In this document: positions 34,627 through 40,787 of the stretch, piece after piece
How positions within the stretch are numbered: position 1 is the stretch's first letter
How the letters are laid out: each line of letters opens with the position of its first letter
Origin: a virus
Length of the DNA: 40,865 nt
Direction: 5' to 3' (one strand)
IMG/VR virus record: IMGVR_UViG_3300045988_119870
Position numbers and translations under genes: made by a program
The notes under the pieces: model-generated
What the model saw: the letters and a program-made list of their open reading frames with translations, nothing else
Databases searched by the model: none
Told to the model about the DNA's origin: nothing

Positions 34627-34818
34627 CTAAAGCTTGCATCTCCAAAATCCAAACGGATAAGTCGTGCTGTTTCTCCGGAAGAGATCTGCATATTTTTTTT
34701 CCAGCTCTCTTCTGGAGAAATCAAACTGCATATCAATCCCAGTTCTCAGCTTTACCCACTGCGGATACGTGATCCCGTCCAGAGCTTCGATGTACTCACT
34801 CAATTTTTTTTGGCTCAT
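34627..34818 (-). CDS. Hypothetical protein (63 aa)
   Basis: ATGA overlap with the antirepressor stop, indicating translational coupling. Confidence 0.55.
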   Translation of the reverse strand: MSQKKLSEYIEALDGITYPQWVKLRTGIDMQFDFSRRELEKKYADLFRRNSTTYPFGFWRCKL

Positions 34819-35552
34819 ACTGCCTCCTTATTCTTCAAATACTTATTCAGGAAATACTGCTGGCCTTTTCCGGTTACCTTTGTGGTTTTAGTCATCCGCA
34901 CGCTGCCGTCCGGATTGGAAATCACGGTTTCTTTGATCTGGAACAGGCCGTCTGCTACATATCGCTGCGTCGGCATGTTCCGACTGGATCCAGTCTTCAT
35001 AAGGTAACCTTCGTTTCGGAGCTGTTCAAACAGTCTTTTCTGTCCGGTATCTACGCCATTCTGACGCAGGAGCTTCGCAAGGTCGCCGATCAGGATGGAG
35101 CTGGTGCTTGCGCTCACCGCGTCCGCGAAGATTTCCTTCGGCTTCATGCGCTCGTTCTCATCAATCAGTTTCTTGTTATCTTCTTTCAGAGTGTCGATGG
35201 TTCTGTCTGCGAGCTTCAGCGCCCTTGCCATCACCTGCTCCGGAGTGTTCCAGGCTTTCTCCAGATCGATGAAGTACTGACGCATGATTTTTCCTTTTTC
35301 GGTTTTTGTCATCATGGAAATGTGTTTCGCCATATCCGTTGACAATAAAAAATCATCCAGAACTCTTTTTGCACCATTGTTTACAACCGTAGGTTTGCCT
35401 ACGCTTTGATAATCCGTGCCTTTTTCAAAAACATCCACATACCTTGAAAACCACAAGCTGAATCTCTCTCTAATTTCCAGTGCTTCATGTAAATCTCTTG
35501 CTGATACGGTCGGCTGTTCTGCCTCGTAGTTAATTTTTAACAACTCGTTCAT
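34815..35552 (-). CDS. Phage antirepressor (AntA/ORF6N-type N-terminus plus KilAC C-terminal domain)
   Basis: 245 aa. The N-terminus reads PTVSARDLHEALEIRERFSLWFSRYV. The C-terminus reads ILIGDLAKLLRQNGVDTGQKRLFEQLRNEGYLMK...QRYVADGLF. Confidence 0.88.
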   Translation of the reverse strand: MNELLKINYEAEQPTVSARDLHEALEIRERFSLWFSRYVDVFEKGTDYQSVGKPTVVNNGAKRVLDDFLLSTDMAKHISMMTKTEKGKIMRQYFIDLEKAWNTPEQVMARALKLADRTIDTLKEDNKKLIDENERMKPKEIFADAVSASTSSILIGDLAKLLRQNGVDTGQKRLFEQLRNEGYLMKTGSSRNMPTQRYVADGLFQIKETVISNPDGSVRMTKTTKVTGKGQQYFLNKYLKNKEAV

Positions 35553-35628
35553 CTAATTCCTTCTTTCTATCTTTATTTTTGATTTTGTGTTATACTTCTT
35601 TCAAAATATTTTGAAAAGGAGAATTGCC

Positions 35629-36363
35629 ATGAATAGTGATGTAACCATTATCCAATCTCGCTTTCACTACACCGAAAAAGCATATGTGCCAAACACTTCG
35701 AACATCGTAGTTATCATTGACGAGCTGATCAAATTGATGGAACCGTATTTTCACAAACAAGCCCCTACATTCCGACTTATAAATGATATTCGCTTTGAAC
35801 ACCCAGAAACCGCTTCTACTTACGATAAAATTCATATCTGCTGTATGGACACTTCTTGGTCTCAAATAGCCTATCAATTTTCCCATGAATTCTGTCACCT
35901 TTTAATTGGAAATCCAGTTCCACAAAAGATGCGATGGTTTGAAGAAAGCATTTGCGAACTTTCCTCTTTGTTTTTCATGGAACAGCTGGCCATTGTTTGG
36001 GCGAAAAGTGGAATCCTCGGTCATCCCGAATACGCGGGATCTTTTATCTCCTACTGCGATAATCGCATGAATTCCGTATCTAACCTTCAAAATCTTTTGG
36101 ATGTCTCCGATCCATCTTCTAATATTTGGGTTCATGCTGTTTCCGAATGCTATGACAGAAATTTCAATTTGCAAATTGCCAAATTACTTCTACCAATTTT
36201 TCGCAAATACCCTGCATTATGGGAAACTGTTCCCCTTTTAAGCAGGTTACCAGAAGATGAACGCTCACTTACTCGGTATTTAAGTTATTGGAGCATCCTT
36301 TCTGGAGAATCATTCCGGCAGCCTTTTGTAGAACTCGCTGAAACTCTTCATTGTTCCATATAA
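35629..36363 (+). CDS. AT-rich accessory gene: putative HEXXH zinc metallopeptidase (possibly ImmA/IrrE-like)
   Basis: I trimmed the ORF to the ATG at 35629, which has SD AAAGGAG. QIAYQFSHEFCHLLIG contains HEXXH in a context resembling COG2856-type proteases, with downstream Glu residues (RWFEESICE). The gene lies antisense within the early operon. Confidence 0.65.
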   Translation: MNSDVTIIQSRFHYTEKAYVPNTSNIVVIIDELIKLMEPYFHKQAPTFRLINDIRFEHPETASTYDKIHICCMDTSWSQIAYQFSHEFCHLLIGNPVPQKMRWFEESICELSSLFFMEQLAIVWAKSGILGHPEYAGSFISYCDNRMNSVSNLQNLLDVSDPSSNIWVHAVSECYDRNFNLQIAKLLLPIFRKYPALWETVPLLSRLPEDERSLTRYLSYWSILSGESFRQPFVELAETLHCSI

Positions 36364-36605
36364 GACCAATTTACCCACTGATTCTCACGCCATAACCAAA
36401 ACTCAGCCGCGCCACCGTTGTAATAGATATAAACTTTATATCCTGTTACCTCTGGTGGCTCTGGTTTCCCGCCAAGCAAGATCTCTTCTCTTTTCGCCAT
36501 GAACTGATGCATAGCAAAAGAAATTGTTTTTTCAAGCTGTGCATAGTCAACGCCCATAGCTCCCGGTGCTCCCTTAGGGCATCCGTAATTCTTGAACGTG
36601 TTCAT
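36348..36605 (-). CDS. Hypothetical early protein (85 aa)
   Basis: I trimmed the ORF to the ATG at 36605, which has SD AAGAAGGTGAG. Its 3' end overlaps the convergent plus-strand gene by 16 nt. Confidence 0.5.
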   Translation of the reverse strand: MNTFKNYGCPKGAPGAMGVDYAQLEKTISFAMHQFMAKREEILLGGKPEPPEVTGYKVYIYYNGGAAEFWLWRENQWVNWSYMEQ

Positions 36606-36753
36606 GTAACTCACCTTCTTTCTTTTTTCTGTCATCCTGTTTCTGGCTTACCATGGCTTCTCCCATACCCAAGAGATAACCCTTGTCAAAATCAGACATT
36701 TTGGGGATTGCCGTTGCGATTGTTTCCAGAATCTGTTTTTCTCTTTCTGACAT
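36574..36753 (-). CDS. First early-operon ORF (59 aa, below the ORF-track cutoff)
   Basis: AAAGGAAGTGAAACGAG-ATG, translating to MSEREKQILETIATAIPKMSDFDKGYLLGMGEAMVSQKQDDRKKKEGELHEHVQELRMP. It starts about 36 nt downstream of the consensus promoter. Confidence 0.5.
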   Translation of the reverse strand: MSEREKQILETIATAIPKMSDFDKGYLLGMGEAMVSQKQDDRKKKEGELHEHVQELRMP

Positions 36754-36788
36754 CTCGTTTCACTTCCTTTCTTTGTTGGTATATTGCG

Positions 36789-36817
36789 ATTATATGCTGG
36801 TTAATCTCATTTGTCAA
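36789..36817 (-). promoter_or_regulatory. Consensus sigma-A promoter for the early (lytic) operon
   Basis: Minus strand reads TTGACA, a 17-nt spacer, then TATAAT (-35 at 36812-36817, -10 at 36789-36794). The -35 box sits in an inverted repeat, ttgtcaa-N8-ttgaca (36811-36831). Confidence 0.7.
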
Positions 36818-36830
36818 TAGTATTTTTGAC

Positions 36831-36863
36831 ATTTACCAACTTTTTGCAATTTACCAACTTTTT
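36831..36863. promoter_or_regulatory. Two 15-bp direct repeats (candidate operators) between the divergent promoters
   Basis: atttaccaacttttt occurs at 36831-36845 and again at 36849-36863, with 18-bp spacing. Confidence 0.55.
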
Positions 36864-36866
36864 ATA

Positions 36867-36895
36867 TTGATTTTCTTTTATTCATGCGTTATAAT
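36867..36895 (+). promoter_or_regulatory. Promoter for the repressor gene
   Basis: TTGATT, a 17-nt spacer, then TATAAT (-35 at 36867-36872, -10 at 36890-36895). SD AGAGGTGA and the ATG at 36925 follow. Confidence 0.6.
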
Positions 36896-36924
36896 CAAAA
36901 TCAAGAAAAGAGGTGAACACATAA

Positions 36925-37305
36925 ATGTATAAACGTCTCAAAAAATTAAGAAACGAATTGGAAATGACTCAGCAAGAATTTGCTGATGTATTAGGAACCG
37001 CGCGAGGAAATATCAGTGCTTATGAAGTAGGAAAAAATGCACCCAGTGATGCTGTTATCTCTCTTATATGTAAGACAGACTTCCCAAAAGGAAGAGTCAA
37101 TGAGACCTGGCTACGCACTGGTGAAGGGGAAATGTTTATCGAAGCGTCCCGTGACGAACAGATCGCCGCTTTTGTCGGCGGCATTCTAAAAGACGAAGAA
37201 GATACCTTTCAGAAAAAGTTTATATCCATGCTGGCTGCATTGGATGAATCAGACTGGGAAGTTCTACAGAAGATGGTTGAATTATTGCAAGAAAAAAAGG
37301 GCTGA
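36925..37305 (+). CDS. CI-like Xre-family repressor without a peptidase S24 domain
   Basis: 126 aa. The N-terminal HTH reads LKKLRNELEMTQQEFADVLGTARGNISAYEVGKNAPS. The short helical C-terminus has no Ser/Lys autocleavage module. The gene is divergent from the early operon. Confidence 0.85.
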   Translation: MYKRLKKLRNELEMTQQEFADVLGTARGNISAYEVGKNAPSDAVISLICKTDFPKGRVNETWLRTGEGEMFIEASRDEQIAAFVGGILKDEEDTFQKKFISMLAALDESDWEVLQKMVELLQEKKG

Positions 37306-37317
37306 TTACTTCAGCCC
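37292..37317 (-). terminator. Rho-independent terminator for the 34-codon ORF transcript
   Basis: Minus strand reads GGGCUGA-AGUAA-UCAGCCC followed by U7. It overlaps the last codons of the convergent repressor gene. Confidence 0.6.
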
Positions 37318-37410
37318 CAAGATCGCTTTAACATACGTATAGATCAGGAATAATCTCCTATCATCGGCATGATCGAGCATTTCAATTATAAGTTTCTTGT
37401 AATCATCCAT
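37306..37410 (-). CDS. 34-codon ORF under a LexA-box promoter (candidate small antirepressor or SOS-induced peptide)
   Basis: GGAGGG, 8 nt, then ATG, translating to MDDYKKLIIEMLDHADDRRLFLIYTYVKAILGLK. It is flanked by its own promoter and terminator and is far below the ORF-track cutoff. Confidence 0.5.
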   Translation of the reverse strand: MDDYKKLIIEMLDHADDRRLFLIYTYVKAILGLK

Positions 37411-37435
37411 AATATGTACCCTCCGATCTGGTTTT

Positions 37436-37464
37436 ATTATATACGAACATTCGTTCGATTTCAA
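37436..37464 (-). promoter_or_regulatory. Sigma-A promoter with an embedded LexA (Cheo/SOS) box
   Basis: Minus strand reads TTGAAA-TCGAACGAATGTTCGTA-TATAAT with a 17-nt spacer. The spacer contains CGAAC-N4-GTTCG (37444-37457), which matches the Firmicutes LexA consensus arms perfectly. Confidence 0.65.
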
Positions 37465-37569
37465 TATCTTTTCTCGAACACTTTGTTCTCTATATTAATA
37501 TTACGGATCAAAAGGGCGAAAATTAGTAAATTTTGGAAATCGTCCGAAATCTCGGACACTTTTTAAAAA

Positions 37570-37764
37570 TCACTTATAAGGGCTGTCATATAAATCGTGC
37601 ATCCGCACTTGCAAGCCCTTGGCGATCTGCTCCAATGTATCCAATCGCGGTATGCTTCCCTTGCACAGATCATTGAGCGTGGACTTCGGGATTCCGGTCA
37701 GAATTGACACCTGCCGGAGTGAGAGGTTTTTCTTATAGATGATTTCTGCAATTAATATCTTCAT
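37570..37764 (-). CDS. Xre/Cro-type HTH regulator (64 aa)
   Basis: LSLRQVSILTGIPKSTLNDLCKGSIPRLDTLEQIAKGL is a canonical HTH_3 motif. The gene is divergent from the 37891 gene. Confidence 0.85.
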   Translation of the reverse strand: MKILIAEIIYKKNLSLRQVSILTGIPKSTLNDLCKGSIPRLDTLEQIAKGLQVRMHDLYDSPYK

Positions 37765-37890
37765 GCAGACAGTATCTGTATGTTGAAAAAAATTATTCCG
37801 AAAACAGCCAAAACTATATAATTCGATTTGTTCTATCTTTGCAGCTGATGTAATTCGAGAATTATCAATACAAAGAATCGAGGTAAACGT

Positions 37891-38457
37891 ATGGGGCTTT
37901 TCTCAAAACTTTTTTCAAAACAAATTTCATTTGAACCTAATTTTACATTGACCGAATACGAAAATTGGCTTGAATATCTTCATTTAGGCGGGAATGATAA
38001 CGAATGGGCTAGGTTAAAGAGAGAACACAATTGGCATTTTAAATATGATCCAATAGATACGCATTTAAATTATGAAAAAGAAATGCGGCCTATATTTAAG
38101 AAATATTATTCTATATCGGAAAACATTGAACATCTATGGTCTGAATTATATAATTCTAAGAATTATCATGGTTTACTTGCGAAGGAAATTGAAAAAAACT
38201 GTTATAAAGCACTTGCCTTTTACGACCAGCTCTGCAAGGTAGACCTAAAATATGGTGAGGTTCCCTTAAAGACAAACCTTTTCAAAAGACTGGCTCTATT
38301 ATATGAACGCCAAGATGAGTACGAAAAATCTATTGAAACGTGTAAAAAAGCCTTCACTTATGGCATCGACGAAAGAAAACGTATGATGCGCATGATAAAA
38401 AAGGCTGGGCGGACGCCTACCGCCGAGGAATTAAAACTCCTCAACACGATTATATAA
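37891..38457 (+). CDS. AT-rich accessory gene: hypothetical protein with a TPR-like C-terminal helix pair
   Basis: 188 aa with SD GAGGT. FKRLALLYERQDEYEKSIETCKKAF looks like a single TPR. GC content appears visibly lower than in the structural genes. Confidence 0.65.
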   Translation: MGLFSKLFSKQISFEPNFTLTEYENWLEYLHLGGNDNEWARLKREHNWHFKYDPIDTHLNYEKEMRPIFKKYYSISENIEHLWSELYNSKNYHGLLAKEIEKNCYKALAFYDQLCKVDLKYGEVPLKTNLFKRLALLYERQDEYEKSIETCKKAFTYGIDERKRMMRMIKKAGRTPTAEELKLLNTII

Positions 38458-38557
38458 TTTGTAATACTCAAAATGACATGTAATTTTTCAGTATTCCTCA
38501 CGTATATAAATGGGATATTATATCCTACACATTAAATACATTTCAAAAAGGAGAACA

Positions 38558-39280: not shown

Positions 39281-39356
39281 TACGTCAGACAAGCAGAACG
39301 TTTGTTTTGGCGTTTTTTCTTATATTCAAAATTGAAAACTTAAAGAAGGTGATATT

Positions 39357-40787
39357 ATGTCAGCACTTAAAAATGGTGCTCTCTACATCCGCGTCAGCAC
39401 CGCGGATCAGACCGAACTCTCTCCGGATGCGCAGCAGCGTCTGCTCCTGGACTACGCGAAGAAGAACGGGATTGTCATCGCAAAAGAGTTTATCTTTGAG
39501 GAGTCTGTTTCGGGCCGGCATGCCGACCGGCGGCCAAAATTTCAGGAGATGATCGCTCTCGCAAAGCAGGATTCTCACCCGATCGACGTGATTCTGGTCT
39601 GGAAATACAGCCGTTTCGCGCGCAACCAGGAGGAATCCATTGTCTACAAGTCGCTCCTCAAAAAGAATAATATTGATGTAATCAGCATCTCCGAGCCGCT
39701 GATTGACGGCCCGTTCGGTACGTTGATCGAGCGTATTATCGAATGGATGGACGAATACTACTCGATCCGTCTATCCGGTGAAGTCCTGCGCGGTATGAAG
39801 GAAAAAGCCCTGCAGCATGGCTACCAGGCAACGCCATGTCTTGGATACCAGGCGGCAGGCGGCGGCAAACCGTTTGTGATCGATGAAGCGGAATACCAGA
39901 TTGTCAAATACATCATGGATCAGTATGACTTCGAGCATCTTGACCCGACAGCAATTGCCCGCAGATGCAATGACCTCGGATACCGCACCAGACGCGGAAA
40001 TCTCATGGAGCGCCGCTCGATCGAACGTGTACTGCGTAATCCTTTCTACGCTGGTGCCGTGGTCTGGAACGGGATCTCTTTCGACGGCACACACGAGACG
40101 CGGCTGGATCCGGCACGCTATCAGGAGCGTATCAAGCGCATGGATGCCCGCAGACGCTCTCCTAAGAGCCGCAACCCATCAACCTGCCGCCACTGGCTCT
40201 CCGGTCTCTTAAAGTGTCCAATTTGCGGCGCTACGATGACGGTAACAGCCGGAAACACATCTTGTCCGTACTTTCAATGCTGGAAATACGCAAAAGGTTT
40301 CCATAAAGGCTCCAATTCAATCACCGTTGCCAAGGCAGAGCGAACCGTCTACCGCTACTTCGATGATATCCTCGCCGGTGCGGATTTCTCCTTCACTGTC
40401 CGCGACCGGAAGCAGGAACAGGAAGACGATGAGACCATCCAGCGGCTGCAGCAGGCCCTGGAGCATCTGGCTGTCCGCGAAGCCCGCGTGAAGATGGCTT
40501 ATGAAAATGGGATTGATACGCTGGAGGAATACGGTGCCAACAAAAAAAGGCTCGCCGAAGAACGACAGAGCCTGCAGAAAGAACTGGACCGCGTGCTTAC
40601 GCCCGCCGCCCCGCCGGAAACAATCTCAAAAGAAGATTTCCGGAAAGAGATAAAAAACATCAATGATATTCTGAAAAATCCTGAGGAACCAGCCGAGAAA
40701 AAAGGACTTCTGCTCCGCTCCATCGTGGATCGTATCGTCTATGAAAAAGCTTCCGGGACCATGTATTTCGACTTTTTCGTTTCCTGA
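39357..40787 (+). CDS. Large serine recombinase (integrase)
   Basis: 476 aa. The resolvase-type catalytic N-terminus reads ALYIRVSTADQ...VILVWKYSRFARN. A recombinase domain, a zinc ribbon (CPICGATM...CPYFQC) and a C-terminal coiled coil follow. Confidence 0.95.
   Translation: MSALKNGALYIRVSTADQTELSPDAQQRLLLDYAKKNGIVIAKEFIFEESVSGRHADRRPKFQEMIALAKQDSHPIDVILVWKYSRFARNQEESIVYKSLLKKNNIDVISISEPLIDGPFGTLIERIIEWMDEYYSIRLSGEVLRGMKEKALQHGYQATPCLGYQAAGGGKPFVIDEAEYQIVKYIMDQYDFEHLDPTAIARRCNDLGYRTRRGNLMERRSIERVLRNPFYAGAVVWNGISFDGTHETRLDPARYQERIKRMDARRRSPKSRNPSTCRHWLSGLLKCPICGATMTVTAGNTSCPYFQCWKYAKGFHKGSNSITVAKAERTVYRYFDDILAGADFSFTVRDRKQEQEDDETIQRLQQALEHLAVREARVKMAYENGIDTLEEYGANKKRLAEERQSLQKELDRVLTPAAPPETISKEDFRKEIKNINDILKNPEEPAEKKGLLLRSIVDRIVYEKASGTMYFDFFVS

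Follow-up and report, generated by a model that had tools for sequence, protein, structure and literature searches.

The small gene and its terminator

The virus record IMGVR_UViG_3300045988_119870 of IMG/VR, a stretch of 40,865 nucleotides referred to below as the window, carries on its minus strand a small transcription unit convergent with the gene of a CI-like repressor. The 34-codon open reading frame (ORF) of this unit, which may encode an antirepressor controlled by the LexA protein of the host, is the subject of this work. Its promoter consists of the -35 hexamer TTGAAA (37459..37464) and the -10 hexamer TATAAT (37436..37441), both located by sequence reading and by a promoter scan, and of a 17-nt spacer between them (TCGAACGAATGTTCGTA, from sequence reading); it gives an 11/12 match, and only three sites scoring 11 or more were found by the scan in the surrounding 4 kb. 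Within the spacer lies the palindrome CGAACGAATGTTCG (37444..37457), a LexA box of the Cheo/DinR type with a 10/10 match. The Shine–Dalgarno (SD) sequence GGAGGG (37419..37424), kept in close relatives, stands 8 nt 5′ of the ATG at 37410, and the ORF itself (37306..37410) encodes MDDYKKLIIEMLDHADDRRLFLIYTYVKAILGLK, a putative small antirepressor with the form of a helical hairpin, as judged from its homologues, from their ratio of nonsynonymous to synonymous substitution (dN/dS) and from an AlphaFold2 model. The unit is closed by an intrinsic terminator (37291..37318) with an 8-bp stem and T7, whose GC-rich hairpin (stem at 37318-37298; folding energy -15.7 kcal/mol, z = -2.7) overlaps the 3′-terminal codons of the repressor gene, its stop included. 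In fact, the stop codon of the ORF (37308-37306) abuts that of the repressor (37303-37305), and the latter is contained in the hairpin. These elements had all been read from the DNA in an earlier, initial annotation, and each of them is found where it had been placed. Directly upstream of the small ORF, in the same orientation, there is a 64-aa gene of the HTH_26 family (Cro/C1-type; 37570..37764, minus strand, from Pfam).

The repressor (126 aa; 36925..37305, plus strand) has been assigned by means of Pfam, PHROGs and AlphaFold2 (predicted local distance difference test, pLDDT, 85). Its sole Pfam match is HTH_3/HTH_19, without an S24 autocleavage domain, and the AlphaFold2 model shows a five-helix helix-turn-helix (HTH) domain followed by helices 76-87, 93-104 and 111-125, with no peptidase domain; the initial annotation had been right in describing a CI-like protein of this size lacking S24. 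The gene is transcribed rightwards from the promoter TTGATT-17-TATAAT (36867..36895, plus strand, 10/12 match), with the SD AGGTG and the ATG at 36925, and the early (lytic) promoter TTGACA-17-TATAAT (36789..36817, minus strand, 12/12 match), the presumed target of the repressor, points leftwards. Between both promoters there are two 18-nt direct repeats (..ATTTACCAAC; 36823..36858), whose half-site GTTGGTAA is found again within and after the early promoter, and which are likely to be the repressor operators.

The small gene had been thought to be invisible to ORF callers, and this holds in part: it has been missed in some records, for example L064, and has been called at 33-36 aa in NCBI, JGI and UniRef. 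A search using an over-extended 52-aa frame of the small ORF as query returned 17 proteins, many of them exactly 33-36 aa long and deposited as hypothetical proteins in these three collections (e.g., P0012 of Fusicatenibacter saccharivorans). The 52-aa frame begins with a TTG that belongs to the -35 hexamer and was for this reason discarded as an artefact; the calls of 52-58 aa are likewise too long, their added codons being a translation of the promoter. When 1.84 billion cluster representatives (50%-identity clusters) were searched with a profile, 85 matched at E<=0.001, mostly of 30-36 aa, and these share the motif DYKKLIIEMLDkADeRkLkLIYxYIKAlLGL. In public assemblies of Blautia, Fusicatenibacter and related genera, a single variant of the peptide is present in 1636 indexed blocks. 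A peptide 97% identical, together with the repressor module, also occurs in L014 (CAVLAW010000039.1), a contig binned as Tidjanibacter massiliensis (Bacteroidota), most likely through a binning error for a Lachnospiraceae prophage contig. Among 32 distinct coding sequences the mean proportion of synonymous differences (pS) was 0.73, which is near saturation, and ranged from 0.45 to 0.90 between diverged loci, the proportion of nonsynonymous differences (pN) was 0.07-0.34 and the median dN/dS was 0.175; column entropies of the gene at the three codon positions were 23, 14, and 37. The peptide is under purifying selection, and the 34-codon ORF is almost certainly a real gene.

The terminator has been conserved as well. 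Across 16 diverse loci pairing was found in 106 of 106 cells of the stem (100%), compared with only 21-53% in slid controls, and three of the seven stem pairs show compensatory double changes, a score not equalled in any of 500 shuffles. This conservation bears on the possibility that the transcript is the effector, that is, that SOS-induced convergent transcription or an antisense RNA lowers the expression of the repressor, the ORF being secondary. The unit runs towards the repressor gene and shares DNA with its 3′ end, and antisense control was the first hypothesis for the aimX gene of Bacillus phages. Moreover, the shared hairpin is not followed by a T-run on the plus strand, so that transcripts of the repressor probably continue across the small gene, antisense to it, as far as 37542-37557; there, just after the stop of the HTH gene, a GTCC..GGAC hairpin, terminator-like on the plus strand (T5), could end them. 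This hairpin, followed by GATT(T)TCC, occupies the same position in L001, L012, L028, L054, L057, L058, and L063, which represent several groups of loci, with loops that vary. On the other hand, a strong terminator, conserved with compensatory changes, stops the small transcript after an overlap of about 15 nt, the peptide is under strong purifying selection at a saturated synonymous divergence, and in the AimX system stop-codon and recoded alleles showed that the protein, and not the RNA, is the effector. A transcript effector is therefore given a small probability, and a protein is the likely effector here, since the terminator has been conserved with compensatory changes. Antisense read-through of the repressor transcripts could still provide an added safety catch in the lysogen. 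On the complementary strand, the T-run of the terminator (window 37291-37305) corresponds to the final lysine codons of the repressor (..EKKG). The same DNA is thus both coding tail and U-tract, and this could account for the conserved K-rich C terminus of the repressor.

The LexA-type box in the promoter

The initial annotation had pointed to a perfect CGAAC-N4-GTTCG palindrome in the promoter spacer. This site is confirmed and is the sole instance in the 40.9-kb window, where 0.02 would be expected from shuffled sequences (it was present in 2 of 100 shuffles). When one mismatch is permitted, 0.92 boxes are expected by chance in the window, so that a lone site is only moderately improbable. 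Stronger evidence for the box comes from its placement within a promoter of 11/12 match and from the related loci, in which it is conserved. To evaluate this conservation, 63 homologous loci were gathered out of assemblies, reference genomes, and IMG/VR, the collections being scanned with a narrow alignment of the peptide because a broad one of 50 sequences was too diverse. With the window they make 64 loci and represent 39 non-redundant combinations of peptide and upstream sequence. Sites were scored against CGAACNNNNGTTCG within 130 nt upstream of the ATG, taking random 130-nt windows of the same loci as controls. A box of at least 8/10 was found in 30 of the 39 non-redundant loci (2.6% of control windows) and one of at least 9/10 in 25 of them (0.9% of control windows); these counts are not independent because the loci are related, though their flanking sequences have diverged. 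In the relatives the box is placed in the -35/-10 spacer or overlaps the -10 hexamer, and one group has two sites flanking the promoter. Its right arm alternates between GTTC and GTTT; the clostridial LexA operators have been described as GAACnnnnGTT[CT], with both forms (PMC4234289).

The box is retained while the flanking sequence, the presumed repressor operators and the presence of the upstream HTH gene all vary. For example, the operators read GTTGGTAAAT in the window, GTGGCATAAG in L001, and otherwise in other loci. Because the box outlasts changes of flank, operator, and upstream gene, the factor that reads it must be common to all hosts; such a factor would fit LexA, and would fit neither the phage repressor nor the 64-aa HTH protein. 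An alternative role of the box as operator of either of these two proteins was rejected, the box being kept across differing operators and in loci lacking the HTH gene. On these comparative grounds, control of the small ORF by LexA is very probable.

Other promoter elements deserve mention. A second GAAC..GTTC palindrome, GAACAAAGTGTTC (window 37476-37488), stands about 12 nt upstream of the -35 hexamer with five spacer bases, not four; it is retained in L012 and degraded in L001. In L051-L053 the region 60-110 nt upstream of the peptide ATG has, instead of a LexA box, two direct repeats (T/A)CCAT(G/A)ATTGTGGAAA, so that the same peptide–repressor pair would seem to receive another regulatory input there, and L056 has neither the box nor repeats of this type. 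In L041 a paralogous small ORF (MDYKKLIIELLDKLNDKRYLKYIYQLIKTL..), preceded by the same leader, has a LexA-box promoter of its own, TTGACA-ATCGAACAAACGTTTGA-TAAAAT, the second in this locus; this unit is located about 400-600 nt downstream of the peptide gene, beyond the repressor and divergent from it, in the position of the first early gene. The conserved element CCAAAATTTACTAATTTTCG (~37516-37535), on the upstream side of the small promoter, was considered as a third operator of the phage repressor and rejected, for it is the same in the window and in L001 despite their different operators. Finally, the sequence GAACGTTTGTTT (window 39296-39307, plus strand) is a core LexA-type match about 50 nt upstream of the start codon of the serine integrase; there is no convincing promoter around it, and core matches occur at chance level in the window (5 found, 2.8 expected).

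The peptide and its relation to the repressor

The pairing of the peptide gene with the repressor is tightly kept. A homologous repressor (an HTH protein of 120-130 aa, 42-100% identity) is convergent to the peptide gene in 36 of the 39 non-redundant loci, and in 34 of these 36 the stop codons are separated by -4 to +19 nt (71 nt in L017 and 114 nt in L020). The arrangement is found in prophages with serine or tyrosine integrases and with differing early genes, and a reverse start from two repressor homologues (P0120 and P0092) led both times to the peptide gene, called or uncalled. The initial annotation had raised the question of whether ORF and box recur beside repressors in related prophages, and they do, with the box in 30/39 and the repressor in 36/39.

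AlphaFold2 predicts for the peptide a two-helix hairpin, with helices 3-14 and 17-31 (pLDDT 86). The small size of the product, the LexA control and the likely antisense overlap resemble those of loci of the tisB/istR type, and the gene might encode a LexA-regulated type I toxin-like or membrane-active peptide similar to TisB, for which the read-through transcript of the repressor would be the antisense antitoxin. However, the N-terminal half of the peptide is highly charged (DDYKK..E..DHADDRR), its hydrophobic stretch of 14 residues is interrupted by lysine and too short for a membrane helix (there is no run of 18 or more), the predicted hairpin is soluble and amphipathic, and no Rfam family was detected in the region, a scan of 36000-38500 giving only a sub-threshold chance match elsewhere. 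A toxin would also leave unexplained the covariation with the repressor protein described below, and this explanation is very improbable.

The predicted hairpin shows some likeness to the repressor itself. In hhalign comparisons, residues 1-33 of the peptide align ungapped onto residues 92-124 of the repressor, which correspond to its last two helices (P=0.003, probability 10%). The score of 19.8 was not reached by any of 300 column-shuffled controls (mean 10.2, sd 2.3, maximum 19.2), and the helices predicted by AlphaFold2 are congruent (3-14 and 17-31 in the peptide vs 93-104 and 111-125 in the repressor). The likeness of the peptide to the C-terminal hairpin of the repressor is suggestive, not proven.

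A second link between both proteins comes from their divergence. Pairwise identity of the peptides correlates with that of repressor helix 76-87 with r=0.80, and with that of other segments with values of 0.36-0.54. When the rest of the repressor is controlled for, windows within residues 67-90 still give a partial correlation of 0.57-0.62, and those elsewhere give values mostly about 0 (range -0.34 to 0.29); a partial Mantel test for residues 67-90 gave r=0.70 and p=0.0005. An illustrative case is that of L050 and L051, which are alike in the type of helix 76-87 and in the type of peptide, and unlike in the two helices at the end. Because the part of the repressor gene nearest to the peptide gene is its 3′ end, the covariation is not explained by linkage alone. 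From these patterns we infer a direct contact of the peptide with the C-terminal, non-DNA-binding half of the repressor, and an action on the adjacent repressor is considered fairly probable.

An SOS-induced peptide might nevertheless have another target (LexA, RecA, a host function, or the repressor of another prophage), its adjacency to the repressor gene reflecting the inheritance of the lysogeny module as a block. There is a precedent in gp7 of GIL01, mentioned in PMC11323111 as a small Firmicutes phage protein acting on LexA, and homologues of the peptide occur without a neighbouring repressor in L021, L022, and L037. But the divergence of the peptide follows residues 67-90 of the repressor, rather than the nearest part of the gene or the whole protein, the likeness of its profile to the C-terminal hairpin exceeds an effect of composition, and the stop-to-stop layout has been kept across prophages of differing integrases and early genes, which makes another target unlikely.

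Covariation and similarity imply an interaction without giving its sign, and the peptide might also assist the repressor, as a co-repressor or stabilizer that damps or delays SOS induction or sets the specificity of immunity. Small co-repressors or lysogeny-promoting proteins are known, such as Lxc of P1 and AriS of Listeria. A promoter repressed by LexA would, however, be silent in the lysogen, just when a co-repressor is required, and all the characterized LexA-controlled small partners of non-cleavable repressors derepress (Tum, GfoA/GfhA, AimX of phi106 and Sar). In addition, the non-cleavable repressor has otherwise no SOS link in the window: the Ant homologue (34815-35552) has no LexA box and is part of the early block, presumed to be controlled by the repressor. 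An assisting peptide is accordingly held to be improbable, and derepression would be the direction of the effect.

The upstream gene, known systems and a proposed mode of action

The window is a prophage of gut Blautia with a serine integrase at 39357-40787. The exact repressor sequence is present on at least 1000 public contigs, annotated from Blautia, and relatives occur in Fusicatenibacter, Mediterraneibacter, Acetatifactor, Oliverpabstia, and other Lachnospiraceae. Among the early genes there is an AntA/KilAC homologue (the Ant gene mentioned above). On the opposite strand inside the early gene block, an ORF of 258 aa (window 35587-36363, plus strand) contains a HEFCH (HExxH-like) motif, without a Pfam match at E<=10 or a PHROG at E<=0.01; a metalloprotease or a moron/defence gene are possible identities, and a role as an ImmA-like protease, which would offer a rival route of induction, is unsupported, there being no family match at any threshold. 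With respect to the three loci lacking an adjacent repressor (L021, L022, and L037), their peptide homologues also lack a LexA box and are found near an ORF of 632-637 aa presumed to be primase/D5-like. A similar motif (..LDERKQRLILVHIRALAGKN) closes another small ORF in L022 and L037, and a homologous ORF of 118-126 aa is common to L021 and L037. All three loci may belong to satellite-like elements.

The conserved 64-aa HTH gene had not been tied to the small unit in the initial annotation. In 35 of the 63 loci (L001-L008, L012-L014, L024-L036, L050-L055, L057, L058, L060, L061, and L063) a homologue of it, oriented like the peptide gene, precedes the latter by 146-208 nt. In L001-L008 the gene is present though never called, and most copies have no obvious SD. 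It is lacking in the remaining loci, among them loci that retain the LexA box, and loci without it carry instead a conserved leader (..ATCGCTACTTTAG..). In L009-L011, L015-L020, L041-L049, and L064 this leader is a conserved segment of 45-50 nt with ATCGCTAC(T/C)TT(A)G between the -10 hexamer and the SD, and could be a structured leader or a binding site. Probably a third member of the module, the HTH gene may encode the Cro equivalent of the phage or else give the small ORF a second regulator. The nearest analogue for an HTH gene beside a small ORF is found in the modules of transcription factor and small protein in which the small protein has been proposed to inactivate cI (Silpe et al., Nature 2023; PMC10432266). 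As in those modules, the HTH gene adjoins the peptide gene (in the 35/63 loci), and the LexA box is replaced by other repeats in L051-L053; unlike the present unit, with a LexA box in its promoter, they are independent of DNA damage and belong mainly to phages of Vibrio and other Gram-negative bacteria.

Small antirepressors under LexA control are known from several phages. Tum of coliphage 186 and GfoA/GfhA of the Gifsy phages are reportedly small proteins that inactivate non-cleavable repressors and whose promoters are held off by the LexA of the host. The same LexA–antirepressor logic would apply here, although those proteins depend on a box of the E. coli type (CTGT-N8-ACAG), are larger, are not encoded in a tail-to-tail arrangement with the repressor, and act on several prophages in trans. 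The peptide has no match among the antirepressors of Pfam and PHROGs, a direct comparison with Tum or GfoA/GfhA not having been made. In the Firmicutes, the small antirepressor Sar of SPbeta-like phages is expressed under SOS conditions from a LexA-controlled promoter (10.1101/2025.11.27.690993). It resembles the present case in that control, and differs in that its target SroF has an integrase fold and Sar is a DNA mimic, whereas here the repressor is of the HTH XRE type and the peptide resembles a helical hairpin of a protein.

More closely related in design is the AimX–AimC pair of the extended arbitrium Bacillus phages phi106, phiW23, and BMBtp14 (PDB 9sf2 and 9iaq). AimX (29-80 aa) is encoded convergently to, and abutting or overlapping, the 3′ end of the gene of AimC, a non-cleavable HTH repressor of 80-140 aa; in phi106 a LexA site lies just upstream of AimX; and the AimX protein, not an antisense RNA, is the effector, forming a heterodimer with the C-terminal domain of AimC that blocks oligomerization and DNA binding, a pair that its authors explicitly compared to SinI/SinR (10.1101/2025.11.23.689978). 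The window shares with this system a small ORF that converges on and abuts the gene of an HTH repressor that is short, lacks autocleavage and has a helical domain at its C terminus, and, as in phi106, a LexA-type site upstream of that ORF. The HTH half of the repressor matches that of phi106 AimC (9sf2_A, E=1e-6, positions 4-66 only), and no sequence match was found between the C-terminal domains in this comparison of the repressor profile with 9sf2_A. By contrast, no PDB chain, those of the AimX complexes included, was found to resemble the peptide in sequence, there is neither AimR nor AimP and the upstream position is occupied by the 64-aa HTH gene, the host is a member of the Lachnospiraceae and not a Bacillus, and the strong terminator limits the antisense overlap. 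The genes beyond the HTH gene, both on the other strand, encode a 188-aa protein with a sub-threshold match to tetratricopeptide repeats (TPR) and a 224-aa putative lipoprotein, and neither is a TPR receptor of the size of AimR; nor is there an evident AimL/Cro-like regulator, because the first early gene has no Pfam match (HTH included). A fold search with the model of the repressor gave no significant match (best E-value 0.014), since its two domains are flexibly linked; the non-significant list includes 9sf2_A (phi106 AimC–AimX, ranked third), 9iaq, Stl, DdrO, and SinR/SinI (1b0n_A).

In SinI–SinR of Bacillus subtilis (PDB 1b0n), likewise, a small helical antagonist resembles the C-terminal multimerization helices of an XRE-type HTH repressor, and SinI forms with SinR a heteromer that prevents DNA binding. 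Unlike the present peptide, SinI is not controlled by LexA and is not a phage protein; furthermore, the similarity here is weak (hhalign probability 10%) and covariation marks the helix that precedes the mimicked hairpin. The best reading by analogy is that the small gene is analogous, and not homologous, to the phi106 AimX/AimC pair and would work like SinI/SinR. The initial annotation knew of no equivalent in phages of the Clostridia, and it stands that none has been described in this class, a literature search having found no published description of this peptide family or mechanism in Lachnospiraceae or Clostridia; it must be amended in that LexA-controlled small antirepressors have now been described in Bacillus. 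LexA-controlled small antirepressors as such are known, and the same architecture was shown in Bacillus phages in 2025; the gene family, the host clade, the independence from arbitrium and the 64-aa HTH companion have not been described.

Taken together, the 34-codon gene is best interpreted as a small antirepressor kept silent by the LexA of the host in the lysogen, with a probability of roughly 0.6. This interpretation, first put forward in the initial annotation, gains support at the level of sequence from the purifying selection on the peptide, the compensatory changes in the terminator, the likeness to the repressor hairpin and the covariation with repressor residues 67-90. Several points weigh against it. 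No alignment of peptide and repressor is obtained by BLASTP, and the hhalign probability of 10% is low; the covariation comes from 27 related sequences and marks helix 76-87 instead of the mimicked helices 93-125, so that both lines of evidence disagree on the geometry of any complex; and covariation and similarity, as said, could accompany inactivation of the repressor or assistance to it. Searches with the peptide returned nothing from Pfam or PDB at E<=10 or from PHROGs at E<=0.01, and so it is not assignable to any antirepressor family tested (Ant/KilAC, AntA, Bro-N, and others in Pfam/PHROGs), and GenBank phage records gave nothing by blastn with the 1.2-kb region or by tblastn with the peptide. 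Three homologues are carried by other elements without an adjacent repressor (L021 2998-3108, L022 561-662, and L037 2998-3099). Control by LexA is not universal, since a good box is wanting in 9 of the 39 non-redundant loci and L051-L053 carry different repeats, and the box has been judged by the forms known for the LexA proteins of Firmicutes and Clostridia, which may not be the motif of Blautia itself.

If the antirepressor interpretation is correct, LexA bound to the CGAAC-N4-GTTCG box between the -35 and -10 hexamers would block the small promoter in the lysogen. Upon DNA damage, active RecA would lead to the self-cleavage of LexA and the promoter would fire, giving an mRNA of about 140 nt that ends at the hairpin/T7 terminator, so that there would be little antisense transcription into the repressor gene. 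The two-helix hairpin translated from this mRNA would bind the C-terminal, non-DNA-binding half of the 126-aa repressor, where covariation points to residues 67-90, including helix 76-87. Being like the last two helices of the repressor, the hairpin would probably replace the partner subunit, as in SinI/SinR and AimX/AimC, by sitting on the surface that the C-terminal helices use for self-association, with loss of operator binding. The repressor oligomers would then dissociate and vacate the operators at 36823-36858, and the early promoter (36817-36789) would open. The 64-aa HTH gene could provide a second regulatory input. The disruption of oligomers by mimicry is a model to be held tentatively, at somewhat less than even odds. 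A wider conjecture, doubtful as it stands, is that the peptide is a microprotein derived from the C-terminal hairpin of the repressor and acts as a dominant-negative switch in a three-gene cassette (64-aa HTH gene, small ORF, and convergent repressor) widespread in Lachnospiraceae prophages of the human gut. This cassette would have an exchangeable promoter input (mostly the LexA box, other repeats in L051-L053 and a LexA-driven paralogue in L041), and its repressor-less copies in the primase-carrying, satellite-like L021, L022, and L037 might trigger or sense resident prophages in trans.

To our knowledge, little is known about the induction of prophages in the dominant Firmicutes of the gut, whose repressors are often short HTH proteins that do not cleave themselves. 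The module studied here is common, with the repressor on at least 1000 contigs and one variant of the peptide in 1636 assembly blocks. An SOS-dependent antirepressor of 34 aa, if true, would be a concrete trigger for the induction of these prophages by DNA-damaging drugs and genotoxins, and would offer an experimental handle to induce or to lock them. The combination of LexA box, small ORF, and convergent repressor would also serve as an annotation signature for a small gene that is inconsistently called. Finally, the logic of AimX and SinI would then reach beyond Bacillus and beyond the arbitrium systems.

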